Source of the DNA: Glaucostegus cemiculus
Taxonomy: Eukaryota
Direction of reading: 5' to 3'
Assembly: GCA_976551045.1 (NCBI GenBank)
Contig: CDPCPM010000060.1
Span: forward strand, 3,224,001 to 3,288,000
DNA: 64,000 bases
Positions 4,594 through 55,054 of the stretch are shown here, piece after piece. The translations under genes were made by a program, and so were the position numbers. Each line of letters starts with the position of its first letter. The first letter of the stretch is position 1. The notes beneath the pieces were generated by a model, which ran no database searches, was not told the DNA's origin, and saw only the letters and a list, made by a program, of their open reading frames with translations.

Positions 4594-5404
4594 ATCAGAA
4601 TCAGTTTTATTGTCACAACCATATACATACATAGTATGCATAGGAGAGGACCTGGCTGTGTCCTCCTCAGGTGCTCGTCCCATTAAATAACAACCAACAG
4701 AGACACACAGACACACTTAACAGAATAAACATTAAAAACCATTGAACATTAAAAACTATGGAAGTTAAAATTAAATTAATACGCAGATTAAATTAAAAAT
4801 GGCCGGTAAATAAGTAAATAGTTATTAAAGTGAACGGGCTGGTGGCGGGCATTTAAAGTGCTGGTGCATTTCTGTGCACCTAGCATCTCTTAGTGTTAAC
4901 AAGGAAGATGGAGGGATGAGAGAGTTTGCAGGTCTGATGGCTTGCGGAAAGAAGCTATTGTTCAGCCTGGTCGTTCTTGCCCTGATACATTTAAGCCTCC
5001 TCCCTGATGGCAAAATTGTAAAGAGGTGATGGGAGGGGTGAGAAGGGTCGGCCATTATGCTTTTGGTCTTCCTCACACAACGGTCTTTTTATATGTCTGC
5101 GAGGGATGGAAGCGAGACACCTATGGTCCTCTCCGCAGCCCTAACTATCCTCTGGAGGGACTTCCGCCCAGCAGCTGAGCAGCTTCCAAACCAAACAGTG
5201 ATACATTGGGTTAGGATGCTCTCAATGGTCCCTCTATAGAAGGTTTTCATGACGGAGGGATGGGAGTTCGCTTTCCTCAGTCTCCGCAGGAAGTAGAGGC
5301 GTTTCTGAGCTTTCTTCTTGAGGGCCGTAATGTTAGTGGACCAGGTCAGGTCATCAGTGATGTGCACCCCCAGGAACTTGGTGCTGCGTACTTGTTCCAC
5401 AGCA
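4594..5404 (-). mobile_element. Rex1/Babar-type LINE, 5'-truncated copy 2
   Basis: KFLGVHITDDLTWS..KKAQKRLYFLRRL..FYRGTIESILT (RT C-terminal region) plus the same 3'UTR and tail. Confidence 0.9.
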
Positions 5405-22982: not shown

Positions 22983-23349
22983 CTGCAACACAGGTGAAAA
23001 TTAAATTTTCTAGTAGGACTGTCAATTAATTGCCTTTAATGCATGCACTTAACATCACAAATTAACACTAAAGTGCTAATGGTGTGTATACCACCAAAGT
23101 ATTATTTTAAAAATGTTATACACTGGCTTCTGTGGACCACATACTGAAAGTCTGCTTCAGAGCTTCTATTGCCATGCAACACTCACAATCCCTAATGTCA
23201 GCTGGTTCTCACACATTCTGTCTATTGTACAATTTTTTTTCCAGTCATGCCAAAGAAGTTAGTAAAACAAAAAATATTTTGAATTAATAACTGATGAACA
23301 TTGAACAGAATCATACACCCACAGGCCAAGCTGTGCCACGGATACTATG

Positions 23350-24420
23350 TTCAAACTGGCTTTTGTTAATTGGGTTTGTATCCTCAGCAATGGCAAGGCC
23401 CAGCATGTGAATGCTAGTGACAGTGCTGAATCATTCACAACCAAGTTCAGCCGAAGGGGGTGAAAAGATGATCTATCCTGGCTTCCTCCTGAGATTCTCA
23501 CCATCACAGAAACCAGTCTCCAGTCAATTCTCTCCATGTGAGATTGTGAAGCAGCCAAGAGCACTGGATACAGCAAAGGCCATGGAAACAGTCAACATCC
23601 CAGCTGTACTATTTGAAAAACTGCATTCTAAAACTAGCTGCACTTCTAGTCAAGCTGTTCCAGTATTGTTACAACACTTAGCACCTACTGGAATGTTATC
23701 CATGTAAAAGTTGATTGCAAAAAGCTATCAGCACCTGATTAGTCTTCTCAGTGATGGAAATGGCTATCACATGGAACTTACTAACAACCTGCTCACCACT
23801 GCCCAGTTTGGAGTTTGCCAGGACTACCTGGCTCCAAACATGGGCCAAAATGCTGAATTTCAGAAGCAAGGCAAGTGTGACTGATTGGTATTAAGGAGGC
23901 CAGGTAAAACTACAGTTAATAGAAGGGGGAAGTCTTCAATGCTGCTGTTGTACCTTGTACAAATAATGATGGAGGTCAATAATCAGCCTCAGGCTATCAA
24001 TGAGCTTCCATCTAAATGACTGAGGTGAGGATGTTCATTGAAAACATTTATTTGCATTGGCAACTCCTCACAAATGAAGTAACCCATACTTGCATTCAGC
24101 AAGATCTTGAAAAGCAGGCATGGGTGACAAGTTGCATGCAATGATCATTAAGAGTTTACCCACCTACTCTTGATATTACCATCACTAAGTATACTGGGAG
24201 TCACCATAGACAAGAAATTCAATGGGACAGCTCAAATATCCTGAAGCCTTTCCACTAGTCAGGATTGTAATGAAATAGCCTGGATGAGTACAGATCAAAC
24301 TTGACCCCCATTGAGGACAAAGTAGCCTGCTTGATTGATCCTCAAATCACCCTAAACATTCATTGCCATCCATCACTGACATATATTAACAAAATGCTGT
24401 GCAGTTACTCAAATATGCTA
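23350..24420 (+). mobile_element. Old degraded CR1-clade LINE (RT region)
   Basis: ALDTAKAM...NIPAVL (the K..GPD.IP motif preceding the RT) and an AQFG-type segment; many indels. Confidence 0.55.
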
Positions 24421-25335: not shown

Positions 25336-26874
25336 CCACAGGTAAATCAAGCGAAGTGGGAATAAGTGCAAGGTAAAACAGCAAGATGTCAGTATCTTAT
25401 TTGAAAAACTAATCAAAAGTAGTAAGTATAGTCAGGCTGTTGCCATATATCATGGTCAAAGATGGAGACCAAAGGGGTCATTCATTAAATCTGGAGGGAT
25501 AGAAACAAGATGCTAACTTCAAAGTTGACAGATAGCCCACTTGGCCTCCAAACAAAGAATGGTGGGAAAGATGGAGCAATAATCTTATACTGGTGTCATT
25601 AGTGAATGGGTCACTAACTCAAGAAGAGGGAAAGTTGGAAAAAGAACAAAATGCTGTCCATATGATTCAAGCCTGTGTTAGGAATATCTACCTAGCCAGC
25701 ATTTCCCCAAGACAATCTCACTTGAAGTGCTGAAGCTACAAGGAATGCTTGTGGTCAAAATGACTAATTTTAAAAGAGCTGGAAGAAGACCCCGCAATAA
25801 TCAGTCCCTCTCCAGTAGAGCAAAGAGAGATGAAAATTGCACTAAAAGACCTAGGTATTCTTAAATCTAATAGTACTAATAGATTTTGGAAATTAATTAG
25901 AAGACATCCATGCCCTGGCTTGGGCAAAGTACCTCAACACTGGGGCATAGCCAGGCACTATCCGAGCCAGGATATGATCCGCTCTCACCAGGAAATGCTC
26001 AAAAATATTTAAAGTTATGATTTAAACCACATTGGGAAAGAGTAACTGGGGAGCAATACTCGTGAGCCAAAAGTTTAGGAGAAATCAAAGCCAAGGTGAA
26101 TATACACTTGTAATGAATTCTCTGGAGTAGCCAACCCAGAACAATCCAGTTTCCTTAAGATGCCAAAGAAGAGACTTGGGAACTTAAGGTTGGGACAAGC
26201 AAGAACATCAAATGCTGGAAACAGTTAACACTTCAAGTCAAAGGGTCTTCAGTCCTGAATGTCAATTCTGTCTCTTTCCACAGATGCTGTGTCTGGCCTG
26301 CTAAGTGTTTTCAACAATTGTTTTTGATTTTCATTAGAAGGCCCTAGATCTCAGGATTTTAACAACTATGTAACATACAACATGCCAATTATACATTTAA
26401 AGCAGCAAAATACCCTCCATACTCAGTGGTTGTATCAAACTAGAAACATTCACCATTTAACATAGTTCTATGTTGACAATCCTCCAACTGCATCCAAAAC
26501 AGAAAGGAGTCACTGTGGAAAACCAGCCTGCATCGTACAAGCACCAAAGGCTGGATTTAAAAATTAGCCCTTGGGTAAAACTTACTGGACCATAAGAGGT
26601 CTGCTATTTGGTACAAGCGTCAGCGGTTTGCTTTTGGCAAGATCCAAGAATGGGAAAGGAAAAAGTCTTTGACTTTAAGTTTATAGTGGGTGGACTGCCT
26701 AGAGCCTAAATGAATGCAGAGCAATATATTGCCACCCAAGCCTGACAGTATTGTGATTAATCAAGCCTATCTGCAAGACAGATGTAACAGCATTAAAAGA
26801 TGATATAAAAGCTTCTAATAATAGACCATAAAGGTCAAGAGAGATGAATATTTGTGTACAGTTCCAACAAAGGG

Positions 26875-27030
26875 TTTAAAAAAAAAGCTGCTGGTGGAAC
26901 TCTGGGTTAGGCAGCATCTGTAGAAGATAGCCAATATTTTGGGTGCCTCCACAGATGCTGCCTGACAAACCAAGTTCCTCCAGCAGTTTGTCTTTTTGTT
27001 CCAGATACCAGCATCTACAGTTTGTGTCTC
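26875..27030. mobile_element. Short Penelope-derived hairpin (inverted-repeat) element
   Basis: gctgctggtggaactc..ggcagcatctgt arm and acagatgctgcctg..gttcctccagcag arm. Confidence 0.65.
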
Positions 27031-29431: not shown

Positions 29432-32400
29432 ATAGAACATGAAAACCTACAGTACAATTCAGGCCCTTTGGCCCACAAACCTGTGCTGAACATGTTCCTA
29501 CTTTAGAAATTAGAGGCTTACCCATAGCCCTCTATTTTTCTCAGTTCCATGTACCAATCTAAAAGTCTCTTAAAAGACCCTATCGTATCCACCTCCACCA
29601 CTGTTGCCGGCAGCCCATTCCACGCACTTACTACTCTGAGTAAAAAACTTACCCCTGACATCTCCTCTGTACCTACTCCCCAGCACCTTAAACCTATGTC
29701 CTCTTGTGGCAACCATTTCAGCCCTGGGGAAAAGCCTCTGACTATCTACCCGATCAATGCCTCTCATCATTTTATATACCTCTGTCAGGTTCCCCCTCAT
29801 CCTCCGTCGCTCCAAGGAGAAAAGGCCGAGTTCCCTCAACCTGCTTTCATAAGGCTTGCTCCGCATTCAAGGCAGCATCCTTGTAAATCTCCTCTGCACC
29901 CTTTCTATGGCTTCCACATCCTTCCTGTAGGGAGGAGACCAGAACTGAGCACAGTACTCCAAGTGGGGTCTGACCAGGGTCCTATATCGCTGTAACAATA
30001 CCTCTTAGCTCCTAAATTCAATTCTACAATTGATGAAGGACAATACACCATATGCCTTCTTAACCAGAGCCAACCTGCGCAGCTGCTTTGAGCATCCTAT
30101 GGACTATGACCCCAAGATCCCTCTGATCCTCCACACTGCCAAGAGTCCTACCATTAATACTACATTCTACCATCATATTTGACCTGCCAAAATGAACCAC
30201 TTCACATTTATCTGGGTTGAACTGCATCTGCCACTTCTCAGCCCAACTTTGCATCCTATCTATGTCCTGCTGTAACCTATGACAGCCCTCTATACTATCC
30301 ACAACACCTCCAACCTTTGCGTCATCTGCAAACTTACTAACCCATCCCTCCACTTCCTCATCCAGGTTGTTTATAAAAATCACACAGAGTAAGGGTCCCA
30401 GAACAGATCCCTGAGGTACACCACTGGTTGCCAACCTCCATGCAGAATATGACCCTTCAACAACCACTCTGCCTTCTGCGGGCCAGCCAGTTCTGGATCC
30501 ACACTGCAATGTCCCCTTGGATCCCATGCCTCCTTACTTTCTCAATAAGCCTTGCATGGGGTACCTTATCAAATGCCTCGCTGAAATCCATATACACTAC
30601 ATCTACTGCTCTTCCTTCATCAATGTGTTGAGTCACATCCTCAAAAAATTCAATCAGGCTTGTAATGCAAGACCTGCCCTTGACAAAGCCATACTGACTA
30701 TTCCTAATCATATTATACCTCTCCAAATGTTCATAAATCCTGCCACTTAGGATTTTCTCCATCAGCTTACCAACCACTAAGGTAAGACTCACTGGTCTAT
30801 AATTTCCTGGGCTATCTCTACTCCCTTTCTCGAATAAGGGAACAACTTCTGGAACCTCTCCCATCTCCATTGATGATGCAAAGATCATCACCAGATGGTC
30901 CGCAATCTCCTCCTTTGTCTCCCACAGCTGCCTAGGTACATCTCATCCGGTCCTGGTGACTCAAACAACTTGATACTTTCCAAAAGTTTCAGCACCTCCT
31001 CTTTCCTAATATCTACATGGGCAAGCTTTTCAGCCTGCTGCAAGTTTTCACTGCAATCACCCAGATCACTTTACGTAATGAATACTTTACATTAGTATTC
31101 ATTAAGTACTTCTGCTATTTCTTCCGAATCCATACACACTTTCCCACTGCTGCACTTGATAGGCCCTATTCTTCTGCATCTTATCCTCTTGCTCTTCACA
31201 TACATGTAGAATGTCTTGGGGTTTTCCTTAATCCTGCCCACCAAGGCTTCTCATGTCCCCTTCGGACTCTCCTAATTTCCTTCTTAAGCTCCTTCCTGTT
31301 AGTCTTATACTCTTCCAGATCTCTAACATTACCTAGCTCTCTGTACCTTTTGTAGGCTTTTCTTTTTCTTTTGACTAGATTTATTATAGCCTTTGTACAC
31401 CAGGGTTCCTGTATCCTCTTGTGACTCCCGTCTCATTGGGACATGCCTATGCAGAACTCCACACAAATATCCCCTGAATATTTGCCGCATTTCTTCCGTA
31501 CTTCTCCCTGAGAACAATTGTTCCCAATTTAAGCTTTAATTTCCTGCTTGAGAGCCTCATAATTCCCTTTACTCCAAGTAAACGCCTTTCTAGTCTTTCT
31601 GTTCCTATCTCTCTCCAATGCTATTGTAAAGAAGATAGAATTATGATCACTATCTCCAAAATGTTCTCCCACTGAGAGATCTGACACCTGACCAGGTTCA
31701 TTTCCCAATACCAAATCAAGCAGTTTCTCCTCTTGTAGGCTTATCTACGTATTGTGTCAAGAGTCCTTCACGAACACACTTAAACTCCACCCCATCTAAA
31801 CCCCTCACTGTATGGGATCCCAATCGATGTTTTGGAAATTAAAATCTCCCATCACAACAACTGTTATCATCACACCTTTCTAGGATCTGCTTCCCTACCT
31901 GCTCCTTTATATCCGTTACTATTGGGCAGCCTATAAAAAATACACAAAGTTATTGATCGACCCCTTCCTGTTCCTAACCTCCACCCACAAAGACTTCGTA
32001 CACAGTCCCTCCATGACGTCCACCTTTTCTGCAGCTGTGACACTTTCTCTGATCAGCAGTGCCACCCCCACATCTTTTGCATCCCTCCCTGTCCTTTCTG
32101 AAACATCTAAAACCCGGCACTTGAAGTAACCATTCCAGTCCCTGAGCCATACAAGTCTCACCGCATTGTAGCTCCAAGTATTTATCCAAGCTCTAAGCTC
32201 ATCTGCCTTGTTCACAATACTCCTTGCATTAAAATAGACACATCTCAAACCGTCTGAGCATGTCCCTTCTCTATAACCTACCTATCCTCCGTCTCGTATC
32301 TACTACAAACTTTCTCTATTTGAGAGCCAAACACCTCTTCCCCAGTCTCTCTAGTTTAGATCCCACCCCCCAACAATTCTAGTTTAAACTCATCCCAGTA

Positions 32401-33069: not shown

Positions 33070-35528
33070 AATTACGTTATTGTAGCCATTACGGAAAGTT
33101 GGTTCAGAGAAGTGCAGAACTGGCAGCTCAACATTCCAGGGTACAGATGTTTCAGACGTGACAGTTGGGGGTGTAAAAGGAGTGGGGGAATTGCATTACA
33201 GATTAGGGAGACTGTCAGTGCGCACCAAGAGAAGATATCTTGGAGGGCTCATCCAGCAAGGCTCTATCTCAGGAATAAGATAATCACTATAATGGGATTA
33301 TATTGTGGGCGTCCTAATAGCCAATGGGAGCTAGAATAACAAATATACAGGCAAATCATGAAAAGATGCAATAACAACCAGGTGTTGGTGATATTGACTG
33401 GGACTCTTAATGCTGGGGCTTAAATGGGGCAGAATTTGTTAGAGGCATCCAGGATGGTTTCTTCAAACAGTATGTAGATAGTCCATCTAGGGATGGGGCC
33501 GTATGAGACCTTGTATGAGCCTAGTCAGGTGATCAAAGTTAAGTGGGGAGCATTCTGAGAACGCTAACCATAATTCTGTAACACTTGAGATAGGATAAGA
33601 TTGGTCCTGAGGTGAAAGTTATAAATTGGGGGAAAGCAAATTAAAACAGTATTATGTAAGAACTGTAGAAAGTAGACCAGGAGTAGCTGTTCTAGGGTAA
33701 ATCCACATCTGACATATGTGGGAGTCTTTTAAAGGCCAGTTGATTATAGAGTTCAGGACCAGCATGTTCCTGTGAGGATGAAATAGGAGGATGGAAAAGT
33801 TTGGGAACCTTGGATGACAAGAGATACTGTAAGAGAGTAGCTAGGGACAGGGTAGGTCCACTCAAGGACATAGAAAGAAATTTATGCGTGGAGCCATAGG
33901 AAATGGGCAAGGTTCTTAATGAGTACTTCACATCAAGTAGAAGGACATGGATAATGGTGAGATTAAGGAGTATGTTTAAATTCTAGGTCCTGTTAGGAGT
34001 CTTAAAAAACGTTAAGATGGCAAGTCTCCACGGCCTGATGAAACATATCCCATGATACTGATGGAAGCAAGGAAGGAGAACTCTGGTGTCTTGACAGAGA
34101 TCTATGTATCCTCTTCAGCCACAGGCAAGGTCCAGAAGATTAGCGGTGGCCAATATTGTTTCTTTGTTCAAGGCCAACGGGGACAAGCAAGGAAATTATA
34201 GGCCAGTAAGCATTACATCAGTGATAGAGAAATTACTGGAGAAGATTCTTTAGGACAGGGTTTATTCATACTTGGAAAAACACAGGTTTATTAGGTATAG
34301 TTAGCATGAATTTGTGTGGGAGAGGTCCTCCTGTCTCACAAATTTGATTGAGTATTTTGAGGAAGCGATGAACATGACTGAAGAGGGTAGGGCAGTGGAT
34401 GTTGTCTATATGAACTTCAGTAAAGCATTTGACAAGATCCCTATGGTAGGCTGATCCAGAAGATAAAGCCATGTGGGATCCATGGCAAATTGGATTGAAA
34501 ATTGACTTGATCATAGCAGAGGGTAGTGGTAGGGGAGTATTTTTCTGATCAGAGGTCTGTGACCTGTGATGTTCCACAAGCATCAGTACTGGAACCTCTT
34601 GTCTACAATATATTAATGATTTGAATTAAAATGTAGGAGTTCTGATTAGCAAGTTTGTAGATGACATGAAAGTTGGAGGAGTTGTGGATAGTTATAAGAT
34701 AGCCAACAACATAGCAAAGATACAGCTCTGTTGGAAATCTGGGCAGAGAAATGGCAGATGGAGTTCAATCTAGAAGTGTGAGATTTTACATACTGGGAGG
34801 TCAAAAGGGGAAAGTTTACAGTAAATAGTAGGACCCTTAGGAGCATTAAGATACAGAGGAATCTTGCGGTGCAAGTCCAAATCTCCCTAAAAGCAGCAAT
34901 ACCAATGTAGTAAAGAAAAAAAGGCATATGGCCTGCTTGCCTTCATTGGTTGGGGTGTTGAGTATAGAAGTCAGGAAGTCACGTTTTAGCTTTATGAAGC
35001 TTTAGTAAGGCCACATTTAGAATATTGTGTTAAGTTTTGATCACCACACTATGGGAAGGATGTGGAAGCTTTGGAGAGGATTCAGGAGAGATTCACCAGG
35101 ACGTTGCCTGGATTGGGGAAATTGGACAAACTTAGATTGTTTTCTCTGGAGTGTCAGAGGCTGAGGGACAATTTGATGGAAATACATAAAATTACGAGAG
35201 GCAAAGATCATGTAGATGGTCAGAGTCTTTTCCCAGGGTGGAAATATCAAATACTAGGAGGGGCATAGGTTTAAGGTTGGAGTGGGAAAGTTTAAAGGAG
35301 ATTTGTGAGGGAAGATTTTATTTCTGTTTTATACACAGCGTGTTAGGTGCCTGGAATGTGCTGCCAGGGGAGCTGGTAATAAGCAGATTTGATAGCAATG
35401 TTTAAGACACATTTTGACACATGAACAGGCAGGAAATAGAGGGATATGGACCATGCAGGCAGATGGGATTAGCTAATTTGGCTTCATGGTCAGCCAAAGG
35501 GCCTATTCCTGTGCTGCTATGTTCCATA
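33070..35528 (+). mobile_element. CR1 LINE, degenerate ORF2
   Basis: WQLNIPGYRCFRRD (EN), aattataggccagtaagc (NYRPVS), FSKAFDK, ALERIQERFTRTLPGL; CR1 tail. Confidence 0.92.
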
Positions 35529-36051: not shown

Positions 36052-37685
36052 AGACCATAAGACATGGGAGCAGAATTAGGCCATTCAGCTCACTGAGTTG
36101 GCTCTGCCATTTGATTATGACTGATTTATTTTTCCCTCTCAACCTCATTCTCCTGCCTTCTCCCTGTAACCTTTGACACCCTTACTAATCAAGAACCTAT
36201 CAACCTCTGCTTTAAATATACCCAATGACTTGGCCTCCACAGCCGTCTGTGGCAATGAATTTCACAGATTTACCGCCTTCTGGCTAAAGAAATTCCTCAT
36301 CTCTGTTCTAAAGGAAATCCTATTCTGAGGCTGTGCCCTCTGGTCCCAGACTCTCCCACTATTGGAAACATCCTCTTCATATCTACTCTATCCAGGCCTT
36401 TCAATATTCAGTAGGTTTCAATGAGATTCCCCCTCATCCTCCTAAACTCCAGTTGAGTACAGGCTCAGAGCCATCAAATATACATTAACCCTTTCATTTT
36501 CAGGATCATTCTTGTAAACCTCCTCTGGACCCTCTCTAATGCTAGCACATCAACCTTATATATGGGTCCAAAACTGCTCACAATCCTCGAAATGTGGTCT
36601 GACCAATGCCTTACAAAGCCTGAGCATTACATCCTTGCTTTTATATTGTAGTCTTCTTGAAATGAATGCTAACATTGCATTTGCCTTCCTTACTACTGAC
36701 TCAACCCGCAAGTTAACCTTTAGGGAATCCTGCACTAGGACTCCCAAGTCCCTTTGCACCTCCAATTTCTGAATTCACTCCCCATTTAGAAAACACTGTA
36801 TGCCTTTATTCCTTCTACCAAAGTGCATGACCATACATTTCCCTACACTTCTTTGCTCATTCTCCCAACCTGTCCAAGTCCTTTTACAGGCTCCCTGCTT
36901 CCTCAACACTACCTGCCCCTCACCTATCTTTGTATCAGCTGCATACTTGGCCACAAAGCCATCAATTCCGTCATCAAGATCATTAACATATAACGTGAAA
37001 AGTAACAGACTTTGTGTAACAGACTTCGACCCTGTGGAACATCACTAGTCACTGGCAGCCAACCAGAAAAGGCACCCTTTATTTCCATTCTTTGCCTTCT
37101 GCCAGTCAGCCAATCTTCTATCCATGCAAGTACCTTTCCTGTAATACCATGGAATCCTATCTTGTTTAGCAGCCTCATGTGTGGCATCTTATCAAAGGCC
37201 TTCTGAAAATTCAAGTAAACAACATCCACTGACTCTCCTTTGTCTATCCTGCCTATTACTTCCTCAAAGAATTCCAACAGGTTTGTCAGGCAAGATCTCC
37301 CCTTAAGGAAACCATGCTGACTTCAGCCTATTGTATCAAGTGCTTCCAAGTACCCAGAAACTTCATCTTTAATAATGGACTCTAACATCTTACCAACCAT
37401 TGAAGTCAGGCTAACTGGCCTATAATTTCCTGTTTTTTGCCTCCCTCCCTTCTTATAGAGTGGAATGACATTTGCAGTTTTCAAGTCCTCCAGAACTACT
37501 CCTGAGTCTAGTGATTCTTGAAAGATCACTACTAGTGCCTCCAGATTGTGTTCAGCTACCTCTTTCAGAACCCTGGGATGTCCCAGTGACTTATCTACCT
37601 TTAGACCTTTCAGCTTCCCAAACACCTTCTTCTTAGTAATAGATACTACAATCACTTCTGCCCACTGACTCATTCGAATTTCTGG
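36052..37685 (-). mobile_element. CR1 LINE, 5'-truncated (RT region and tail)
   Basis: GNYRPVSLTS, VDVVYLNFQKAFDKMPH, LVRPHFEDCEQFW. Confidence 0.92.
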
Positions 37686-38580: not shown

Positions 38581-39480
38581 GGAGACACAAAGAGACTGCA
38601 GATGCTGAAATCTAGAGCAAAAAACAAACTGCTGGAGAAACTCAGCAATTCAGGCAGCAGCTGTAGAGGGATACAGACATTCAATGTTTTGGGTCAAGAC
38701 CCTTCATCTGGATTGAAAAGAGTAGAGGGAAGATGGCCAGTATAAAGTGAGGGGAAATGGTGGGGCAAGAGTTGGCAAGTGATGTGCATTTGGGTGAGGA
38801 GGGGTGGTTTGCAACTGGAGGAGGGAAAGGTGGAAATAGCAACAGATCAAACGCAGCCTAGGCCACTGCTTTGCTGAGCACCTACACTCCGTCCACTATG
38901 GCCATCTGGAGCTACAAGTTGCAATCCATTTTAATTCCCCTCCCCATTCCCGCACCAACTGGACTGTCTTCTGCCTCCTCCACTGCCAGAGTGAGTCCAA
39001 ATACAAATTAGAGGACAGCACTTAATTTTCCACCTGGGTGGTCTACAAGTCAACTTCAGGAATACTGAATTCTCCAATTTCAGGTAACCTGCTACCCCTC
39101 TGTCCATTTCTCTCTCCTGATCTACTCAGGTCCTCCTACGCACCTCCAACGATCTTTCCCCTCCCCAACTTATTCTACTATCTGCCCATCATTTGCACAC
39201 TCCTCCCATTGGGTCCCTGTCTCCCTTATTTGGTACCATGTTTCATCTTCCTTTCTTTATCAGATTGCATCTGCAGCCCTTTGTTGACTCTATCACCACT
39301 CTTCCATCTCCCCATATGCCAGTCACCCCTTCTCAGTTGGATCTACCCATCACTTGCCAGCTCTTGCCCCACCCCTCACCTCTTTATCAGTCCAGATGAA
39401 GGATCTCAACTCAAAACGTTCCCTCTACAGACACTGCCTGACAGATGCTGTGTTCCTCCAAGGATTTGTTTTTTTTTCTA
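38581..39480 (+). mobile_element. Penelope-like element remnant: GIY-YIG endonuclease fragment between inverted pLTRs
   Basis: KRSLGHCFAEHL..HFNSP..LLHCQSESKYKLE..HLIFHLG (38848-39040); termini 38581-38712 and 39390-39478 are inverted copies. Confidence 0.75.
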
Positions 39481-42272
39481 CAATAATCAGATGCAAGTTC
39501 ACAACCAAGACTTCAGAGTCCAAACCAATGTTGGAATTATAACTCAAGCCAAACATTGATAATTCCTTGTACGAATTATGAAAATTGATTTTTAAATTAG
39601 ATTATTAATGCCAAGTGGCATATGAAGCCTAGGGCAAGTAATATGTTTATTTGTTACAAATTAACCTTCTTAAACTTTTACAACACATGGAACCTTTTTT
39701 AGAGTAGTTTTTAAAAGAACCACTTCAGGCCCCTAAGCATCTTCAACATTTATACATGAGATCAAGTATTTTTCTCAGTTAATGTCCAGTTCATTTCCCT
39801 TTTTCCTTTCCAGGCATTGCTTGTGTAACTCATTTGGTACTGCAGTCAATCGGATAATGTGTAGACAAAAGATGATCACAATCATCAAAGATTTAAAACC
39901 TCCATAAATTAATGTTTTGTAGGAAAGTCAATATTAGACAAGGATTTTCTCCACATCTAATTTTAAGAAATTGAGAGTAACAAGTTCCCACAATAATAGC
40001 TGCATGGTATACATCTAACATTTTCAATCTGAAACACATTCCCTCACATATCTTTAACATTAAAAATAAATGCCTTAATATATTAAAAAGATTAAATGGC
40101 TTAATCTATTCAATTCAAAATTCAATACATAATCCTTCAACCCAAGCACTGATTGCAATTTGATTCTTGAACATCTCTGAGGAGCCAGTGATCAAAAAGT
40201 GTTTGCTTGACTTCAACTAACAATGAATCAGAAAGGCCCCATTCATGAGAAACATGTTTGCTGCTGATTCCAGAGCCTCCTCTTTGGTCCTCAAAGCAAC
40301 TGGAACAGCCCCATTTTCCTGACTGATGACGAAAGTCTGAAGAGAACTAAAGTCATCTGGCTACCATGATTCAGATTTGTGAACAAGAGAGATAGTAACA
40401 GTAAACAAGGCAGAACTAAAAGAGAAACCAGGTTTGATTCCCAAATTGCTATTCTCAATCAATATCTGTATAAATCTGCTCTACAAGTTGAGGCTACCAT
40501 TTGTTTACTGGTATACCATACCAACAAGAACTTTAGCTTACTCCCCTCAAAGTATCCAGATTACAATAGCCCCACTGACTTTTCCCACAGTATGACTATT
40601 CTTGGAAAATAGCTTTCAATGTCTATCTAGTTTTGGATTAATCACAAATTTGCAAGTACCAAAGATTACTCCAATGTGAACAACTACCAGTGACTATGTT
40701 CATCAATTACAAAGCAATTAGTGGTCTTACACTGGAGTACAAAATGCCCGATCACCACATCATGCTTAGCTACAAAAGAACCTGCTCATGGATCCCTGGA
40801 TTTGTTCAGAACTTCTATTCCCCAGAATGATAATTTTTGATGTTAAAAAAAATTCAAATGCCTGCTTCCATTCCATCCTCTTTCCCCCACCACACTTGCA
40901 AACCCATTTTATAAAGTACCGAGCTGGCTCACATCTTTGCTTTAAGTAGACAACACCTAATGTCAAATTAAACTAAATGGTTTGGCTTTCTGGAGGGCGA
41001 CATTTAGACAGCCAGATCAGTGCTGGACCAAGTTCCCATCACACTGATGTGCAAATTTAGTTAATGATACAAGTGCAGCTTAACCAAACACCAAGATAAC
41101 TGAGATACCATACAAGACTTTAAATGAGTTCAGGTAACTTTTTAATGCATCGACTTGTTCAGGCAGGAATCATGCACACAAACAGAGGCAGCTTTAGCCC
41201 TACAAAAATGGAACATCTGGCCTGCGTAAAATGCAAGATCACGCATGACAATCTTTCCCTAATGCAATCCTTATCCAGCTACAAAAGATTGCCAAGGAAT
41301 TGCTTCCAAGCAGAAGGCAGCAAAAATCATTGGCACCAGTGTGGATAGTAAGTAGCATATGCAAAGGTGGCCTCAGGTGATCACACCAATGATCACTGGG
41401 GACAATTCATACAGCCAATACATTTTCCAACTATCCTCAATATCCATTTTTGGATTTTTGAGTGGATTACCCAAGGCAAAGAATACAGCTTTAAAATGTG
41501 ATTTTACTTTTAAAACTTTCCCCAGGTCTCCATCCAAAATTGTTTTCTTTCCTTTTGCTGGAAGATGAACTGAGATCTGATGACAACTGAAGAAGGGCCA
41601 GGTAAATGCCCATGCCTGCACTGTAATCAATGGTTGCAGATACGCAAGAATGTTTCAAATTGCTTTTGCCTTCAAGATTTCTTCTCAAAAATTGTTATAT
41701 TGGTTTAGCCAACAATAAAACTCAAAAGTTGTAGAAAGCTACCTTCACCAAGAGAAATACAGTACTCAAAACTGTACATTTGCTGACACTTATTAGCTAC
41801 TGGCCACAATCCCTCAAACAAATATTTTCACCTGTTAACTCTCCAAGTGCTCATTTATTAACCTTTTCCACAACTGCAAGCTTCTGAAATATACTGCTTC
41901 AATTATTTTTTGTGCATCCTCTATTTCTCTGACTTGGCATTGGCAGCTGGCCTGGGTCCTATGCTCAGAATCACTCCTTAAAAGTTATTTGCTTTTCCTT
42001 CCACTCATTACCATCTTCCTGTCTCTTAATCATCCTCCCTAATCTTCTGGTTTGTCATCGAATTTTTGTCAATGACATGCTCTGGGATATTTTTTAGTTA
42101 AAATGACTATCAAATGCAAGTTGCTGCTGTTGATAACAAATAATAAAACAATCACACTCTTAAAAATGGATGTTCATCCCGTAAAGATGGAGGTGGAAAG
42201 CTTTGTGATTTTTGCATCCTTTAAACAGCAACATGCTCTCCCAGGTCACAGGTTAGGGTAAAGAATGGACAA

Positions 42273-44832: not shown

Positions 44833-45182
44833 TCGTCCAGCGCGCTGCCGAGCAGAACCAGGCTGCCCGTGTTGTCTGTGGAGCGGCACAGCGGGCAGAG
44901 AGCATTGTGCTGGAGAGTGACCCACTTTGCCCATTTCAGATAAAGCAGATGCTGGATTGCACGTTGTCAGCAGCGGAAAGACAACTGCACGTGTCCCTCA
45001 AAATAGAGGCACCACTCAATTACAGATCTATGAAATCTAATCAAACCATAATCATCTCACAACATAAATAAACAGAAAATGCTATAAGCTGACAAGGGTC
45101 TCTGGACCGAAATGTTTACTGTTTCTATTTTGACCTGCTGAATATTCCCAGGGTTTTCCGTTTTTGATTATCAGTTTAGAGC

Positions 45183-45975
45183 AAGAACATAGAACAGTAC
45201 AGCACAGGAACAGGCCCTTTGTCCCACTATGTCCTTGTTAACCGTGATGCCAATTTAAACTGCACATCTACCTGCATGTGATCTATATCCCTCAGTTCCC
45301 TGCCTGTTTACATACCTCTCTAAACGCCTCTTTAACATTGCTATTGTATCTGCTTCCACCTCCTCTCCTGACCTACCACACTCTCAGTAAAAAAAAATTG
45401 CCACCTAAATTTCTTTTAAACATTTCCCCTCTCACCTTAAAGCTATGCCCTCCAGTATTTGACATTTCTATCCTGGGAAAAATACTCTTACTATCTACCC
45501 TACTTATGCCTCTCATCATTTTATAAACTTCTATCAGGTCTGCCCTCACCCTTCAATACGCCAGAGAAAACAATCTAAGTTTGTCTAACCTCCTCTTATA
45601 AGTAATATTCTGACACTACTCATAATTGCACACTTCAAATGTGGCCTGCCCAAAATTTTATACAGCTGCAACTTGACTTCTCATCTTTTATACTCAGGAC
45701 CCTGACTGATGAAGGTAAATATGCCATATGCCTTTTTATCATCCTATCTACTTGCATTGCCACTTTCAGGGAGCTATGGACTTGCATACCAAGATCCCAA
45801 TGCTCCTAAGGGTCCTACCATTTACTGTATACTTTCCTCTTTTGAGTGCAACACCTTATACTTGTCCATTGTGATTAAACTCCATTTGCCATTCTCTGCC
45901 TACATTTCCAGTTGGTCTATATCATGCCAAATCCTTTGACAACTTTCCTCACTATCCACAACTCCACCAACTTAT
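45183..45975 (-). mobile_element. CR1 3' fragment
   Basis: aagaacatagaacagtacagcacaggaacaggccc tail plus RT remnants. Confidence 0.85.
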
Positions 45976-46399
45976 TCTTCCAAATCATTTAACTGCATTT
46001 TTTTACAATTTTTCTACATTTCTTTTTATTTTTAATGTAAACCACAACTTTATTTTCAGTGTCAATAAGTATCAAGTCTGACAGCGTCTCATGACCTAGT
46101 CTCATACCAGCCATGGTAGGCCCCAATATAAATTAATGCTCTGAAACATTAATGCAAGTTGATATTTCGCAACCAGGTTGCAAAGCCCTCTCTGCAATCA
46201 AGTTCATGATCAAGCTCTCTATATGTTGTCAAAACTAATATGAAATAGATTTAAAGCAAATCTTAGTTTTGAAAGAAAAAGTAATTTGATGGCTTCAATC
46301 TGAGGCAGTGAATCAAGATGAAATGTTAACATATTTTTAATTTGTTCTGCTGTGACTGCACCATTGTTTGAGGCTTATGGTCCTTCTTAGATTGTCATG

Positions 46400-48760
46400 C
46401 AGGATCACAGATGACTTACATTCTGGTTTTGTGGGTTCTGAGGTGGACAATGAGGATCTGTGGAGTCTTCCACAAATTGGGCAGGAGATGCCTTGGAGTG
46501 TGGGCAGGTGCAGAGTTTGTTTTTAACTGCTTACACTTGGTCTTTGTGGACTCTTTAAGCATATCCTCAGGGTTCTCAATACCATTCTGAATTTACTTCT
46601 CTACCTTGAGCAGACATGTGCCAGACAGTCCCAGGAGTGAGTAAGGGTACTGCATTTCCTCAAGGAGGCTTTGAGTACATCCTCTTTCTGTCTGATAATC
46701 TCTTCCCATGTCAGAGCTGACTGAAAAGAGTCTGTTTTGGGAGTTTTGGATCTTGCTCGCAAATGATGTGGCCTATTCAACATAGTCAGCAGAGTGTAAC
46801 TGGGATGTTGACCTGAGCGAGGACACTGATATTGTTTTGCTCATCCTTCCAATGAGTTTGGTGTACTCTGTAAACAGTATTGGTGGTAGCTTTCAATGTC
46901 ACTGCTGTAGGTTGTCCAGCACTCAAGCATAAGTGGGGGCTTCATTTAAAGCTTAGAGCACAGCCTTTGAGTGTGCACATGCATGCATGCTCTGCAAACT
47001 GAAGCTTGACCACTGAGGTTCAAGTATCCTTGATTCTGGAACTTGCCACAGGTTGAACAGTTTCATATTCGTTTTGAAGATTAGCTCCATTCCCACTGGA
47101 AGTTAGTTGGAATTGAGAGGCAATAGCAAGAAAGATGGAGAAACGTGTTCTGGCAACACCACATTCTTGTCTTAACATTGATCCTCACTGACAATGGAAG
47201 CAGTTTTGTAGCATACCTGTTAGTAAATATCACACTTTTCATGCTATCACAGAGCAAGCGTAAAACAGGGATGAATTTCTGTAGACAGTCAAATTTGACA
47301 GTCTCTCACAATTGATGAAGGCTTGGTGACGTCTAGGCAGGCCACGTATAATAGCTGGTGCTGCTCCCTGTATTTTTCTTAAAGAAAGGTGCAAATTATT
47401 TTCATCTCTGGATGAACAGAATCCACAATGTGATTTGAGATCAGCACTTCGGCCACAGAAAGGTGGTTGAGCAGGACAGCAGATGAATCCCTATGTACTT
47501 GCTGCAGTTGGATGTACCTCCTTTCTCCCTTGAAATACCCTCCTTTTCCCAGATGTGGGTGATGAGGCTGTAGATTTGTTAGAAACTCTTCACTGTCAAG
47601 TTTTAGAATTTTGTGGACCAAAGGGCCTGTTGCTGTGCTGTACTTTTCTATGTGCAATGTTCTGTTTCAATAAGGATATCATCTACTCCCATGGCCTTGT
47701 TATTTTTTAAAATTCTGATATGGCCTTCCTGACTTCTTGCAGGTTAGCAATGATGGCCTGGAAAGATTGCTGTGAAATGGAATGATGTACACCCAGGTCC
47801 AGGACTGATGCAGTTGAGGAGGTCTTTTAAGTGTTCCTTCCAACAGGTGACTCCCTCTCTGTCCCCAGTGAGTTCACCCTGTTCCTGGCCCTCAGAAGGG
47901 TGGTGCTTTTAGAGCACCGAGGAACCCACACATTATAACTGTTGGGGTGTTGGTGAGCCTCCTGCATTTCATCCATCCATCATCTGTTCTTTAGTTCTTG
48001 CATTTTCTGCTGAACCTCTGCCTTTAGGTATCTGTAATGTTCTTTCTTTTCTCTTAGCTAAAGGCAGAGGTTCCAATCTAGGAACACCTTACTTATGTAA
48101 TTAATTATCTCTTTGATCTACTTCTTATTCTCATCAAACCAGTCCTGTCTCCTCTCATCAGAGACAAGTGTCTCTTCACAGGTGACTTCAGGTCAGTCCA
48201 TAAGCTGTGGAAAGTTTGCAGCTCCTGTAGTTTGGGAGTTGATAGACAACCTGTCAAATCCCAGACAACCTGAGAGATCAGGTCAAAGAAAAGCATGCTT
48301 TGTTGGTTTTTGAAAGCATCAACATTGATCTTGTGGCAATGCTTCTGTTGATGCTGATGCTCTGGGGCAAGTTAATGGAGACAGTGGAGTGAATGAAATT
48401 GCCTGGCAGTCATTGTGCCCATCATAGCTCAGGTAATGCAGACATCTTTGCACTCCTTTGCTTGGATGATGATATACTCTAGCAGGTGTCAGTGCTTGCA
48501 ACTGGGTTATTGTCATAACATCTTATGCTCATCTCTCTGATGAAACAAGATGTTCATTATCACAAGGCATTCTCCAGGCATGCTATCAAGAAAAGGTCCC
48601 TGATGGAGTTAGCCTTCCCTCATCCACTCTTGCTGATCACACCTGGCCAGAGGGTTACATTCCTTCCTACCCTGGTGCTGAAGTCACCCAGAAGATCAGT
48701 TCTCCCTTTGGGATGTGGACCTGGATTTTTTCAAGGTCAGAGGTGAAGTTCTCCTTGACG
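46400..48760 (-). mobile_element. Highly degraded RTE-clade LINE
   Basis: The reverse strand resembles 24540-25335 (KDVLKASLRKC...WDCLA) with scattered RT/EN remnants. Confidence 0.5.
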
Positions 48761-49544
48761 TTGTCTGAAGCTTCTTGAGTTGGGGTATATGCACTGTTGG
48801 CTGTGGTATGTTAAATCCATGTTGGTATGAGCCAAAGAGTCATAAGGCATTCACTAATTCTGTAGGGCGAGTCACTGATAAGACAGACCAGCTCCTTATC
48901 CAGTTTGCACCTCCAGAAAACATGTACCCGTTATCTTGTACCCATTATCTTCCTCAACTAACTTACTTCTTAAGGTACATATTTCCAGGTACTATCAGAA
49001 TAAAACTAATAAATGCAAATTTCCCATTATAAATCATATGCAAATGTTTTTTCAACAGATAAACTTTTCTGTGTATAAATTATATTTGCTTTATTCTTAG
49101 CTGTAACAACAAGCTTCCCCCCCCCCAAAAGGACAATTGTCTTTCAGAAAATTCTAATGAACTTGCAATTGGTAGAACTTCTATAAATATTCAAGAATGG
49201 GAAAAGTATTTCAGTTCATCTAATCTCATTCAGGATTAACAGATCCCACATTGCCACTTACAATTGTTTTTGAATAACCAACAACAAAACAGACATTTGT
49301 TAGATCAATTAAATTATTTGTGGGATATTCCAACAGTATTTTGTTTTGGAAATGGTATATTGAAATGGATAAGCAGCCAACAGGTAGCTGGAGAAGTAAC
49401 AGTTTTTTACAATTGTAAAATTGTACAGAAAGAATACCTTGTGTAAGTAGATTATTCCATCAATAAAAGAGCAAAATTAAACTACATATTTGTAGCAATT
49501 AATTCCACTCAGGAGGGTAATTGATTATAAAAAGTAGTGTTTAA

Positions 49545-49768
49545 AAGCAAAACACAGTGGATGCTGGAAATCTGAAATAAAAACAGAAAATGCTAGAAAT
49601 GACCAGCAGGTTAGGCAGTATCTATGGTGAGAGAAACAATTAATGTTTCAGGTGAATGACCTTTCATCAGAACTGTTGAGGTCATTCACCTGAATGTTAA
49701 CTCTGTTTCTTTCTCCACAGATGCTGCCAGATTTGTTGGTTATCTCCAGCATTTTCTGTTTTTTTATT
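49545..49768. mobile_element. Palindromic Penelope-derived non-autonomous element
   Basis: Inverted arms aataaaaacagaaaatgct...tcaggtgaatgacct and aggtcattcacctga...agcattttctgttttt. Confidence 0.75.
49637..49675 (-). ncRNA. Minimal type I hammerhead ribozyme motif (Penelope-type), near-intact
   Basis: CAGUU-CUGAUGA-A-AGGU(cauuc)ACCU-GAAAC-AUU-AAUUG: conserved core, 4-bp stem II, 5-bp stem I. The stem III palindrome ACGU is changed to ACAU. Confidence 0.6.
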
Positions 49769-49779
49769 ATTTTAAACTA

Positions 49780-50295
49780 ATCAGAATCAGTTTTATTGTC
49801 ACAACCACATACAGACATTGTATGCATAGGAGCAAGATACCGTCCTCCTCAGGTGCACGTCCCATTAAATAACAAACAGAAGAGACACACTGAACAAAAG
49901 AACCCATTAAAACTGCGGAAGTTTAAATTAAATATGGCAGGTTAAGTAAATAGTTTTAAAGTGAACGAGCTGGTGTCGGGCATTTAAAGTGCTGGTGCAT
50001 TTCTGTGCGCCTAGCATCCCTTAGTGTTAACAAAGTAGCTGGAGGAATGAGAGAGTTCACAGTTCTGATGGCTTGCGGAAAGAAGCTATTGCTCAGCCTG
50101 GTCGTTCTCGCCCTGATACATTTGAGCCTCCTTCCAGATGGCAAAATTGTAAAGAGATGATGGGAGGGGTGAGAAGGATCTGCCATTATATTGTTGGTCT
50201 TCCTAAAACAACAGTCCTTGTATATGTCTGCAATGGATGGAAGAGAGACACCTACGGTCCTCTCCACAGCCCTAACTATCCTCTGGAGGGACTCT
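49780..50295 (-). mobile_element. Rex1/Babar-type LINE copy 3
   Basis: Same C-terminus, 3'UTR and ATCAGA tail as copies 1 and 2, slightly more diverged. Confidence 0.9.
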
Positions 50296-50479
50296 TCCGT
50301 TCCGTTAAAAAGCATTTTAGCGGTATAAAAAGCATAAAAAGTGCCACAGGGCTTAAAAATAAGTGAAGTTGTAAAAGAGGTGAAAAGGGTATTTAAGCTC
50401 AATAAATATAAAAATAAAACACTTGACTTAAATCAAAACATAATAATCAATTGTCCATAATCATATTTGCTTTGATCAC

Positions 50480-51720
50480 TGAATAGCTACAGTAAGGATG
50501 GGGGGCCATTTGGCCTGTCAAGTTCACAATGACTATATGAGCGATCTAATTAGTCCCATTTCCCCATTCTCTCCCCAATTTATTTTCACTTACTTATATA
50601 ATTCCCTTTTGAATGCTTATTGAATCCTCTTCCATTACCAGCCCTGGATGTGCAATCCACACCCAACCAATTACTGTGCAAAAAAACCCAATTCTTCATG
50701 TCACTTTTGGATATCTTGCCAACCACTTTTATTCTCTGTTCCCTAGTTATTATCTCTTTGTCAATGGTAACAGTTCTTCTCTGTCTACCCCATCTGTACT
50801 CTTCATGACTTTAAATACCTGTCTGATCCCCTCACAGCCTCCTCTGCTCCAAGAACAGCAACTACAGTTTCTCCAGTCTATCCTGTAGTGAATCTCTTCT
50901 GAACTGTCCCTATAGCTTTTATATCTTCTGCAAGTGTAGCATCCAGAATGCATTACAATGCTATTGATGTTGCTAAAGCAGATCAGAATCAGAATCAGTT
51001 TTATTGTCACAACCATATACATACATGGTACGCATAGGAGCGAGATACCGTCCTCCACAGGAACACGTCTCATAGAAAAGAATAACATAACAACCAACAG
51101 AGAGACACATACACACTTGGCAGAATACACAGTACAAAACATTACTCATTAGTTCTTACATAAATAGATCTTAAAGTGAACGGGCTGGTTCACTTTGTCA
51201 TGACTTCCTGGCTCGTGTACCATGTGATTCTTTTTATAAGTCAGTATGCTTTTTAATCAACTCCTCTATCTGGCCTACTGCATTCAACAAACTATGCACG
51301 TGTACCATCCAAGCTCTCTGTTTTCAAGCCCTTTTAGAATTGTACCTTCTAGTTTATTTATTTTTTCATTCTTTTTGTAGCACTCATATTTCTCAGCACT
51401 AAATTTCCTCTGCCACTTAGCCACCCATATGCCTTCAAATTTGGGTCATATATAAATTTGGAAATTATGCTTTGCATAACCAAGTCCAAGTCATTAATAT
51501 AAATTAAGAAAAGCACTGGTCCTGGTTCTAAACCCAGGAGACTCCAGTGTACATTGCCCTCCAATCCGAAAAACTTTTACTAACTGTTTCGTGTACTTAG
51601 CCAGTTTTTATATCCATGCAGCTATATTCTCTTTCGTTGCATGGCCCTTCAGTGATGAGCCTATGATGTGGTGGCACCTGTTAACCACCTTTTGGAAATC
51701 CATGTATAAAACACCATTTC
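50480..51720 (-). mobile_element. Degraded CR1 fragment containing Rex copy 4
   Basis: GPVLFLIYINDLD RT motif and QVFKVMK..DGVDREELLPL. Confidence 0.75.
50982..51189 (-). mobile_element. Rex1/Babar-type LINE copy 4 (3'UTR only)
   Basis: atcagaatcagaatcagttttattgtcacaacc start identical to copies 1-3. Confidence 0.88.
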
Positions 51721-53049
51721 CCTCATTGGTCTAATTTTCACCTTCCTTCTCCCAATTTTTTCTTCCTAATCCCTGTTACCATATAGAATTGTAATTCTGG
51801 TGCATGTTTAAAAAAACTTTCCCAAGCCTCCTCCCTTTCTCTTGCTTCTCTTTTCACTCTAATTTCTCTTCTCCCCTTCTCCCGATCCTTGCCTCTTCAC
51901 TCCATTCCTTTTCTCATCTTTACCTGCCCTCAAGTTCTAATTTGCAACACCACAGGAAATTTAAAGCACCTTTCTTCTTGATAAAAAGCTAATCAAACAG
52001 TCCCTTTTCTTCCAGGTGGATGCACAACTCAAATGATGTTGTAGATTAAAATTGGTAGCACATCACAGAAAATAAGATTTTTTTTAGGATAAGGCCTTTC
52101 CTTTCCCCCTCCTTCCTGAAAATGCATTGATAATTGGGAACTCTGTGGACTATTTCAGAAGTCATTATTCTATCTCTTAAGCACAGTACCAATATATTCT
52201 GATTTTCTTTATCATTTCCAAATGGCTCCTTAAGCATTCAGCTAGCCATCTGCAACGTAGCTATTTGAACAGGGGTATTTTCCTTGCTACCTACTGTAAA
52301 TCTTAAGTTTACAGTAGATAGCAATCCATCAGCATCAGAATGCAAATGATAATGAATAAGAGTTTAGATTTTACAATGATTCTGCCACTGGTTTAAATCT
52401 TTCTTCATCATATTGGAAGTTAAAGTTGCATTTAGGAACATTTTCAAACTGGGACATCATCCAGCCTTAGGCATGGCTATGGCATTCGTACAATTGTGCT
52501 CTCATCTGATCTGAAGGTCTCTCTGTCAAACTCAAACTTCAGTCGTGTATCATTGCTTATTCTTCTGCTTGGTCTACTGAGACCTGCAGTTTCGCATGGA
52601 TTTTCATTTCATTGGTGACAAAACCCCAGCTCTTGTGGTGCAAGGTCAGTGTGTCTCCAACATCAAAAGGCAATATGGACACCTGACAGTGCTGCAGCAA
52701 GGCTGGAACCAGTGACTGGACTACTGATGTTTTTGGTTTGCTTCAGATTAGATACTGATAACTGGGGTAGCAATTCTTATTTTTAAAATAAAATCTCTAC
52801 AGAGCTCTGCTTGTGTTTAGGAAAAGTAAAGTTAATATACAGACAACCAGGCAGAGTAAGGGAGGCAGGCAGATAATCAGGAAACCTCAGAAAGCATTTT
52901 CATTCAAAGCAGTTGTTCTGTGTTAGAAAATGGTGGAGGTGAATGCAGTTCTGCTGAGTCTGCAAAGTGGGTGGCTCAGCTGCACAGCAGGGGGTGGTGG
53001 AGGCCAAAGTCCGAGGGTAACAGTAATAGGATACTCAATAGTAAGTGGA

Positions 53050-53790
53050 AAAGACAGGAGCTTCTGTGGCCATTGACACGCATACAGGATAGTACTAAGA
53101 TCAAGGATGTCACAGAATAATTGCAGGGCATTATAACAGGAAATGATAAACAGCCAGAAGTTGTGGTTCACTTTCGTGCTAATGACATAGGTAAGAGATG
53201 AGGTCCTGTAACAAGAAATTAGGGAATAGGATGGCTGATTAAAAAGCGGGGCCTGCTAAACCTGGAATCTCTGGATTAATTTCTGGTGCCAAATACTAAC
53301 AAGTACTAGCAAGTAACAAACAGTACCAGCAAGGATAGATCAGATGAGTGTGTGGGTAAAGAGATGGTGCAGAAGGGAGAGCTTAGATTCCTGGATAACT
53401 AGACCATTTCTGGGGAAAGTGTGAGCTGTACAAACTGGACAGGTCACCCCTGAATCTGAACAACTTTGGGGGGAGTTTTGCGAATGCTGTTTGGGAGGGT
53501 TTAAACTAATTGGCAGGTTAATGGGCCACATAATAGATGTACAGTTGGAGGGAATTGCAGTCAAATATAAAAGGAAAAAAAGTATACATAAATATTATAA
53601 GGCACATGGGAGGAATACAAGGCTCCATGGCATAGATTTTAATGCAAGGGGTCAGACCAGTAAGATAGGTGAACTGAAAGCATCGATTATGACATTATTA
53701 CTATCACAGAGAAATGGTTGAAAGAAGGGCAGGACTGGCAACTCAACAGCCCAGGCTATGGAATGTCCTAGCATCATGGGGTGGTGACAA
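53050..53790 (+). mobile_element. CR1 5' region remnant: ORF1 SGNH-esterase part and start of ORF2
   Basis: QPEVVVHFRANDIGK (VVVH.GTND motif), W.KRWCRRE; FNARG and ITE.W endonuclease remnants. Confidence 0.65.
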
Positions 53791-54079
53791 CTTGCCCTTT
53801 CCTGTTGGTATTAGAATTCTCCAGTTCTGCTTTCAGGTTATCCATTTCTAATATTAACTCAGTTTCTTTCCACATGGCATTTTAAGCATTCTCTTTTTGA
53901 TTTTAGTTTTCAGCAACAGCTCTATCCTGCATTTTCAAAGTCTTTTTCCCTCTCTCCAAATGTCTTCATTAATCTCCTAACCAGAAGGCTCTGTAAAATG
54001 GGAAATCCTTTTGTCACCTTCTTCAGTGGTTTTCCTATTCACCCAGTCCTCCACTAAATCGTTTTATCTCTATCCCATT

Positions 54080-54205
54080 TCCGATGAAGGGTCTTCGGTC
54101 TGAGAGATTAACTCTGCTTCCAATTCAATATACTAACCTGCTGAGATTTTCTAGCATTTTCCATTTTTATTTCAGATTTCTAACATCTGCAGTTTTTGAT
54201 TTCTA
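54080..54205 (+). mobile_element. Penelope-derived pLTR fragment
   Basis: ccgatgaagggtcttcggtctgaga (decayed hammerhead core) followed by cctgctgag..agcattt..ttcagatttc..catctgcag. Confidence 0.6.
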
Positions 54206-55054
54206 ACAAAGAGAAGCCTATATTTGATTTGAAGGAATGAAGTACAGACCTAGCACAAAAGCTGGGAAATCAAACAAAATATTTTTGCTTGGATTCTGAA
54301 GCGTTAGTGAGGTTATGTCAAGTAATGCATCAGCAAAGACATTGATGCACAAAATGCAGACAATTGGAAAATAAAGAACAAGAGAAATTAGATGAAAAAC
54401 ATGTTGTCTACTAGCTCCCACAACTTCAAGTTTGAGAACTTTTTCTGCCATTCTCCACCTTCACAAACAGATCAAATTGGGAAATTGTTTTGTATACATA
54501 GTTAGTGAGCTCTGCTTGTGGTGGTCAACAAGATTGATTCCATGGACCACTGTGGTTTTTTGTTTTACCAGTTTTGCCTTTTCAGGAATGCCAGTATGTT
54601 GGATCTGCTTGGCAACTTTCTTGAACTGGTGTTGAGAATATGCATTTTCAAGCAGCAATCTATAGAGCAAAACAAACTGACTGGAGACACTGAGTGGAAG
54701 CTCGTGTGGGAATACCTAAAAACAATTTAAAGAGGAATACTATCAAAGAAAAACATAGATAAAATTGATTGACAGTCAGAAAGGTTTTCTGTATCTTAAA
54801 TGATATGCTCTGAAATATTGACCAAGCTACTATTTTGAAAACTATTCCTGAGTGTAGGATAGAAGTCCGTGGGTGAAACCTGGAAGCCAATGAAATTGGC
54901 TATGATCATCGCTGATTGAAGCACTTTGAAGATGCACAGCAGGCTTGGTGCAATCTCAACTGTATTTAAATGCACAAAATGAAAACGAGAGGTATTTACA
55001 ATTATTGGATCAAATAGCAAGGCTAGAAACAGATTCAATGCTGCATCAGTCATT

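Follow-up and report, generated by a model that had tools for sequence, protein, structure and literature searches.

The element described here lies at 49542..49769 of the window, the whole 64,000-nucleotide stretch of DNA that was analysed, and consists of two head-to-head arms that correspond to the end of a Penelope-like element (PLE). One arm carries, on the minus strand, a minimal type I hammerhead ribozyme motif (min-HHR). The features of the locus are the following.

49542..49675, minus strand: arm A, a PLE end (pseudo-LTR) running from the start of helix I to the tail
49542..49578, minus strand: PLE tail (one-sided, 30-40 bp), carried by arm A and missing from arm B
49673..49769, plus strand: arm B, an inverted untailed copy with a broken hammerhead core
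49647..49694, unstranded: palindrome centre, a perfect 16-bp inverted repeat (49647-49662/49679-49694)
49675-49671, minus strand: stem I, 5' strand
49670-49664, minus strand: CUGAUGA box
49663, minus strand: extra A, unpaired between positions 9 and 10.1
49662-49659/49653-49650, minus strand: stem II, 4 bp
49649-49646, minus strand: GAAA box
49645-49642, minus strand: C-A-U-U
49641-49637, minus strand: stem I, 3' strand, with one G-U pair
between 49642 and 49641, minus strand: would-be cleavage site
49637-49675, minus strand: hammerhead as a whole, with an A10.1-U11.1 pair and C15.2-A16.2 from CpG decay
49778..50293: unrelated dispersed repeat adjoining arm B, with other copies at 3398-4016, 4594-5208 and 50987-51189

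The minus strand of 49637-49675 is a minimal type I hammerhead in which the CUGANGA and GAAA boxes are intact and U16.1-H17 is present; an earlier sequence-only reading had described this motif, and its boxes and stems stand as it gave them. A strict min-HHR descriptor (both boxes, the extra nucleotide, 4-bp stems I and II, and U-H) matched once in the 64-kb window, at this site, and twice in 1.11 Mb of sampled genome. It gave no match in the reversed sample or in 5 Mb of order-2 Markov DNA, which argues that the motif is not a product of chance. The earlier reading had suggested motif searches as a check, and these gave a divided answer: the strict descriptor recovers the site, and an Rfam scan of 45000-55000 returned no hammerhead family at E<=10. 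Minimal hammerhead variants can score below the Rfam models. In isolation, the 39-nt motif folds no better than shuffled sequences (z -0.05). The boxes, the extra nucleotide and the PLE-end arm all fit the proposed identity as a PLE-type minimal type I hammerhead, and the derivation of ACAU from ACGU by CpG decay agrees with a family in which this site splits among CG, TG and CA. The claim that the copy is a single transition from the canonical form did not hold, as about three changes separate it from its own subfamily. Relative to that subfamily, its stem II lacks a fifth pair (G to C), and its stem I 3' strand is altered, by a C to U change if the short variant is the reference and by the loss of 2 nt if the long one is. 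The palindromic 15.2-16.2 for a dimeric helix III, present in the family ancestor, is broken (ACAU). The G10.1-C11.1 pair of PLE min-HHRs is replaced by A-U, which is a subfamily trait. Judged by these features, the hammerhead would be a decayed descendant of a PLE min-HHR and not a working member of that class.

Min-HHRs from the pseudo-LTRs of metazoan PLEs (Cervera and de la Pena, 2014; PMC4209133) are described as sharing much of this architecture, including type I topology, both boxes, the extra nucleotide between 9 and 10.1, a helix I of 4-5 bp and a missing helix III loop, with 15.2-16.2 palindromic as in our family. They also occur as dispersed single copies tied to truncated PLEs, with opposite-strand pairs. 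In contrast to our copy, which has A-U, they keep G-C at 10.1-11.1, and our copy further differs in its broken palindrome and its short helix II (4 bp; 5 in the family). The portions of that paper available to us do not name cartilaginous fish.

Minimal hammerheads are reported to require a dimer, to have low activity even then, and to keep G10.1-C11.1 and the palindromic 15.2-16.2 (PMC4209133; review PMC6765202), and the anole hammerhead is reported to cleave only with its protein (PMC11167929). At our locus, the ACAU self-duplex is predicted at +3.4 kcal/mol (natural ACGU copies: -1.7), and a hammerhead-compatible fold of the full element is predicted to lie 23.5 kcal/mol above the ensemble; these energies leave aside tertiary contacts and protein help, and constrained folds of four control copies were left out, as they forced some non-standard pairs. 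In a minus-strand transcript the antisense strand supplied by arm B would precede the ribozyme, which would thus be sequestered by pairing as soon as it is made, and the fold-back hairpin is predicted to trap it. On the basis of the broken palindrome, the lost fifth stem II pair, the altered stem I, the A10.1-U11.1 pair and the cost of opening the hairpin, this copy is likely inactive. Against this stands its unusual intactness, which places it among the best-preserved copies.

Arm A agrees with the subfamily-A majority at 85 of 97 compared positions. The core of arm B is damaged, with the first box broken, GAAA one A short and the CpG decayed to UG, and the two arms overlap by 3 nt at their junction. 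The outer arms (49579-49638/49704-49763) are 80% complementary, and the 226-nt element RNA has a predicted fold of -95.5 kcal/mol (z -11.3). Together with the perfect 16-bp inner repeat, these values support the fold-back structure first proposed; the accompanying remark that the element has no ORF is also sound, the longest stop-to-stop frame overlapping it being 70 aa. The 27-nt junction has a single match in the 2.85-Gb genome when up to 2 mismatches are allowed, and an element search of the same genome gave 2833 candidates, of which 40 were scored. The fold-back at 49542..49769 is a one-off and not a copied unit, since its junction is unique, the junctions of sampled fold-backs are scattered, and 27 of 35 of these carry a one-sided PLE tail. 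The best candidates for a target-site duplication are 6-11 nt long in AT-rich DNA and none adjoins both ends; any duplication is obscured by the dispersed repeat that adjoins arm B.

Contigs from a related organism (organism L; runs X23 and X24, one sample) align with the left flank over about 630 bp (28 differences, 16 gaps), and one contig of 108 nt crosses the palindrome centre, differing from it at 5 positions. Because these contigs cover both the flank and the palindrome centre, the insertion likely predates the split from organism L. Contigs from X1 and X3 cover only the repeat and so carry no information on the locus. Organism L contigs give thin coverage of the repeat at 49778-50293, which may be a younger insertion. 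A two-base stem II variant (49654-49655/49686-49687) is common to both arms and occurs in 0 of 179 among the family matches listed. At 49686-49687, one organism L contig has C at 49686 and three have G at 49687, the ancestral state. These observations hint at a later correction of arm B to match arm A. A general homogenising of palindrome centres was absent from the 24 of 35 fold-backs long enough to compare (inner 293/384 vs outer 710/969, p=0.27).

The parentage of the arms can be read from longer copies. A sister copy is ordered RT, then GIY-YIG (EN), then arm, and the arm is in place at 21 of 30 subfamily-A (U2.1-A1.1) loci found with 398 bp of upstream body. At least 6 of these 30 loci combine the arm with colinear upstream coding remnants (best tblastx E 4e-27), which at one subfamily-A locus (L222) run from RT to EN. 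A 407-aa sister frame aligns with an intact 740-aa RVT_1 + GIY-YIG ORF at 28% (E 7e-33), and a Pfam scan of four coding remnants gave no matches. The arm is therefore, as the longer copies display it, the end of an EN+ PLE coding for RT and GIY-YIG. Sister copies have a C-x4-C-x2-C linker preceding the GIY-YIG domain, and a CX2-5CxxC linker between RT and EN has been assigned to Neptune/Nematis PLEs (PMC8557442); the family may belong to this type. No intact ORF was found for the subfamily of the hammerhead at 49637-49675.

Young PLEs with intact 740-aa ORFs were considered as the parent and rejected, as the arm model matched only 1 of their 23 loci and their hammerheads differ. These elements (L116, L119 and L120, at G000:C361, C13 and C744) form a separate family that occurs in tandem arrays and encodes intact 740-aa RT + GIY-YIG ORFs. 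It has hammerheads of its own, some with a longer helix III region, and a long upstream frame, up to 855 aa from stop to stop, without a Pfam match, the C-terminus of which we take to be SGNH-hydrolase-like. Elsewhere in the window, 38843-39482 (plus strand) holds an EN (GIY-YIG) remnant with its arm, next to an inverted tailed arm at 38826-38584 (minus strand), so that 38584-39482 is a longer PLE fold-back. At 26874-27030 lies a second fold-back from this family, a small one whose junction is downstream of the ribozyme.

The family is very abundant. Our genome sample comprised 111 stretches of 10 kb (1.11 Mb) taken from arbitrary places on large contigs, and a general model of the ~135-bp arm found 241 copies in it and none in a reversed control, which extrapolates to about 6x10^5 arms genome-wide, assuming that the sample is typical. 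A downstream-only model, built from 30 loci picked by pattern and covering the part 3' of the ribozyme, detected 76 copies among the first 51 stretches; when the 70 usable ones were extended upstream, their majority recovered both boxes and the palindromic site. A family consensus had been named at the outset as a test of the hammerhead, and it came out in its favour, with CUGANGA and GAAA kept as the majority and covariation present in stem I. Both boxes are kept in 15 of 99 ribozyme-spanning arms and in only 1 of 27 subfamily-A arms, and the CpG site in the 99 arms reads CG in 18, TG in 32 and CA in 28. Exact pattern matches numbered 341 for ACAU-type and 79 for ACGU-type copies, the two patterns being near-equal and the ACGU pattern one base stricter. 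The ACAU state seen at our locus is thus common in the family.

The pair 2.1-1.1 of stem I is U-A in 30 arms, C-G in 36, U-G in 6 and C-A in 17 (p=1.7e-6). This covariation corresponds to compensation between subfamilies that may have happened only once, and so reflects subfamily history rather than independent events; it implies that the fold was maintained in the source elements. The unpaired nucleotide between 9 and 10.1 is present in 85 of 99 arms. A10.1-U11.1 occurs in 9 of 38 U2.1-type and 2 of 53 C2.1-type arms (p=0.007), and G-C is the commonest 10.1-11.1 pair in the C2.1 group. In the arms that could be assigned to a subfamily (27 in A, 49 in B), core and flank identities are 226/269 and 862/1036 in subfamily A (84.0% vs 83.2%, p=0.78) and 434/490 and 1605/1847 in subfamily B (88.6% vs 86.9%, p=0.36). 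By extrapolation, about 5x10^3 equally intact hammerhead sites are expected genome-wide. The hammerhead at 49637-49675 is one among thousands of comparably intact relics and carries little weight singly; the family as a whole is a very large natural record of PLE insertions. Subfamily C arms (for example L069:1171-1303) have CUGAAGA as the first box. A9 to C is shared by some B-type copies (19 of 99 arms), and this core change may be older than the spread of those copies. Published supplements, including those of PMC4209133 and a 2026 preprint, may already list these families.

Close pairs among the 241 arms (within 60 bp) are head-to-head in 35 cases, in direct orientation in 3 and never tail-to-tail, and about 9x10^4 fold-backs are extrapolated genome-wide. 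Exactly one arm is tailed in 27 of the 35 fold-backs against 17.5 expected (p=9e-4), junction positions are scattered across the set, and 30 of 31 fold-backs found with models that include the upstream body pair arms of the same subfamily. An inverted 5'-truncated partner with a one-sided 30-40 bp tail has been described for EN+ PLEs (PMC3846280; PMC8557442), and the same layout is found here. Complex insertions of EN+ PLEs (PMC3846280; PMC8557442; PMC11167929) share with our fold-back the head-to-head arms, the short junction overlap, the 30-40 bp tail on one arm and the AT-rich site; our fold-back differs in being stump-sized, both of its arms lacking a coding body.

We infer that each fold-back was made at insertion. 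In vitro work on the anole PLE protein (Frangieh et al., PMC11167929) has shown nicking and extension of both strands in AT-rich DNA, with an RNA template that is not cleaved and on which synthesis begins at two internal positions flanking the tail. By this route, the PLE protein would nick AT-rich DNA at the target, and reverse transcription would begin at two internal sites near the pseudo-LTR of the RNA, yielding one tailed and one untailed arm. The two cDNAs would then join at the 3-nt microhomology, and neutral CpG decay would later break the ACGU palindrome required for a dimeric stem III. Of the 22 fold-backs with unequal 3' ends among the 31 found with models that include the upstream body, 7 have arms of which neither is contained in the other, 8 are nested and 7 are unclear; the first 7 favour two priming events. 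Our locus is of the nested kind, with arm B inside arm A, so that snap-back copying as proposed for the inverted layout (self-priming; PMC3846280) fits it equally as well as two priming events. Taken together, we hold it highly probable that the locus is a decayed, 5'-truncated PLE end whose head-to-head pair was likely built in one insertion, the hammerhead being carried along as a relic that is predicted to be incapable of cleavage.

The sequence-only reading had suggested a non-autonomous, retrozyme-like family, that is, a fixed ribozyme-bearing element that spreads as a 220-bp fold-back RNA by means of PLE proteins. Our element resembles non-LTR retrozymes as described (PMC7229834; bioRxiv 10.64898/2026.07.22.740005) in being non-coding, in its type I hammerhead, in its relation to PLEs and in falling within the 150-450 bp range, and the 2026 preprint derives animal retrozymes from PLE ends and reports them in its one cartilaginous fish. 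The missing ORF, the very high copy number, the many fold-backs extrapolated and the single preferred start position of many body-less copies also speak for such a unit. However, non-LTR retrozymes are described in the same sources as tandem direct repeats with complete working ribozymes and circular RNA, whereas our element consists of one inverted pair, has a variable junction and lacks a second intact ribozyme. We found neither tandem direct repeats (3 close direct pairs among 241 arms, against 35 inverted) nor a fixed whole unit. The junction is unique in the genome, tails are one-sided, the core of arm B is broken, the ribozyme is predicted to be trapped in the hairpin, and the arms are ends of PLEs that code for RT and GIY-YIG. 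The retrozyme reading of the fold-back is largely refuted and we regard it as very unlikely; a short single-arm template may be the unit that spreads.

It has also to be asked whether host selection has preserved this copy, either for ribozyme activity (working or regulated) or for its RNA structure. Only two sites in 1.11 Mb pass the descriptor and the locus, including its palindrome centre, is found in contigs of a related organism, but thousands of equally intact sites are expected genome-wide and there are 341 exact ACAU-type copies. The family core is kept no better than its flank, both arms show CpG decay and stem III is predicted to be unable to pair, and selection of this sort is highly improbable. 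The silence of Rfam and the unremarkable folding of the 39-mer would agree with a fortuitous resemblance to the hammerhead consensus in a repeat of other origin, but chance produced no match in simulated or reversed DNA. The majority sequence of 70 copies that were located through their downstream part alone again contains the core, and stem I covaries at 2.1-1.1 (p=1.7e-6, through subfamily history). We consider the probability of a chance match to be negligible. The decayed, 5'-truncated PLE end with its hitch-hiking hammerhead remains the preferred reading.

The 5' ends of the arms bear on the RNA that was copied. Models that include the upstream body gave 231 arms, of which 205 remained after filtering for length and score. 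Numbered from the cleavage site, the starts of 56 of these fall at the helix I edge (-36 to -28) and those of 11 at the cleavage site itself (-4 to +4), where no pile-up of 5' ends was present among the 205 arms. Starts further upstream number 15 between -139 and -46 and 44 from -140 outwards; alignment may account for part of the scarcity of starts in the pyrimidine-rich body. Among body-less copies the first base of helix I is the preferred start, and the 5' start of arm A is at this edge, which microhomology blurs by a few bases. At 90 loci anchored by patterns beginning at C3, the number matching the family before C3 falls from 26 at -4 to 13 at -5 in the 42 without body (p=0.008), and is 42 at -4 and 39 at -5 in the 48 with body. 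The sampled set (n=76) has 46 matches at -4 and 22 at -5, partly by selection.

The helix I edge resembles, as we take it, an initiator and, with its pyrimidine tract closing in AG, a splice acceptor as well. In Penelope of D. virilis, an intron is described as ending at helix I and the promoter as internal. If the 5' edge were a splice junction of the element, a shared upstream exon would be expected in solo copies, and BLAST found no such match among 25. Splicing from varied host exons may be a source of the edge; a transcription start at helix I is our preferred, though unproven, candidate. A tentative and rather doubtful extension is that the stumps record PLE copying in vivo, in which uncleaved RNA beginning at the first base of helix I is copied from two internal starts and from both sides of the DNA cut, and each arm would therefore be a run-off cDNA and the fold-back twin-primed. 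The openly available main texts and the search listings covered here describe neither twin priming in PLEs nor a 5' edge at helix I. If the helix I edge and the missing cleavage-site peak hold genome-wide, they bear both on whether PLE hammerheads cut the RNA that is reverse transcribed and on the origin of the inverted-plus-tail layout.

The window holds other features. At 23262-23591 (minus strand), a 110-aa frame has a 7TM receptor-like Pfam match (PF10328, E 1e-5) and is possibly a host exon. Decayed LINE-type RT remnants with RVT_1 matches lie at 29432-30942, 34190-35527 and 36927-37432.
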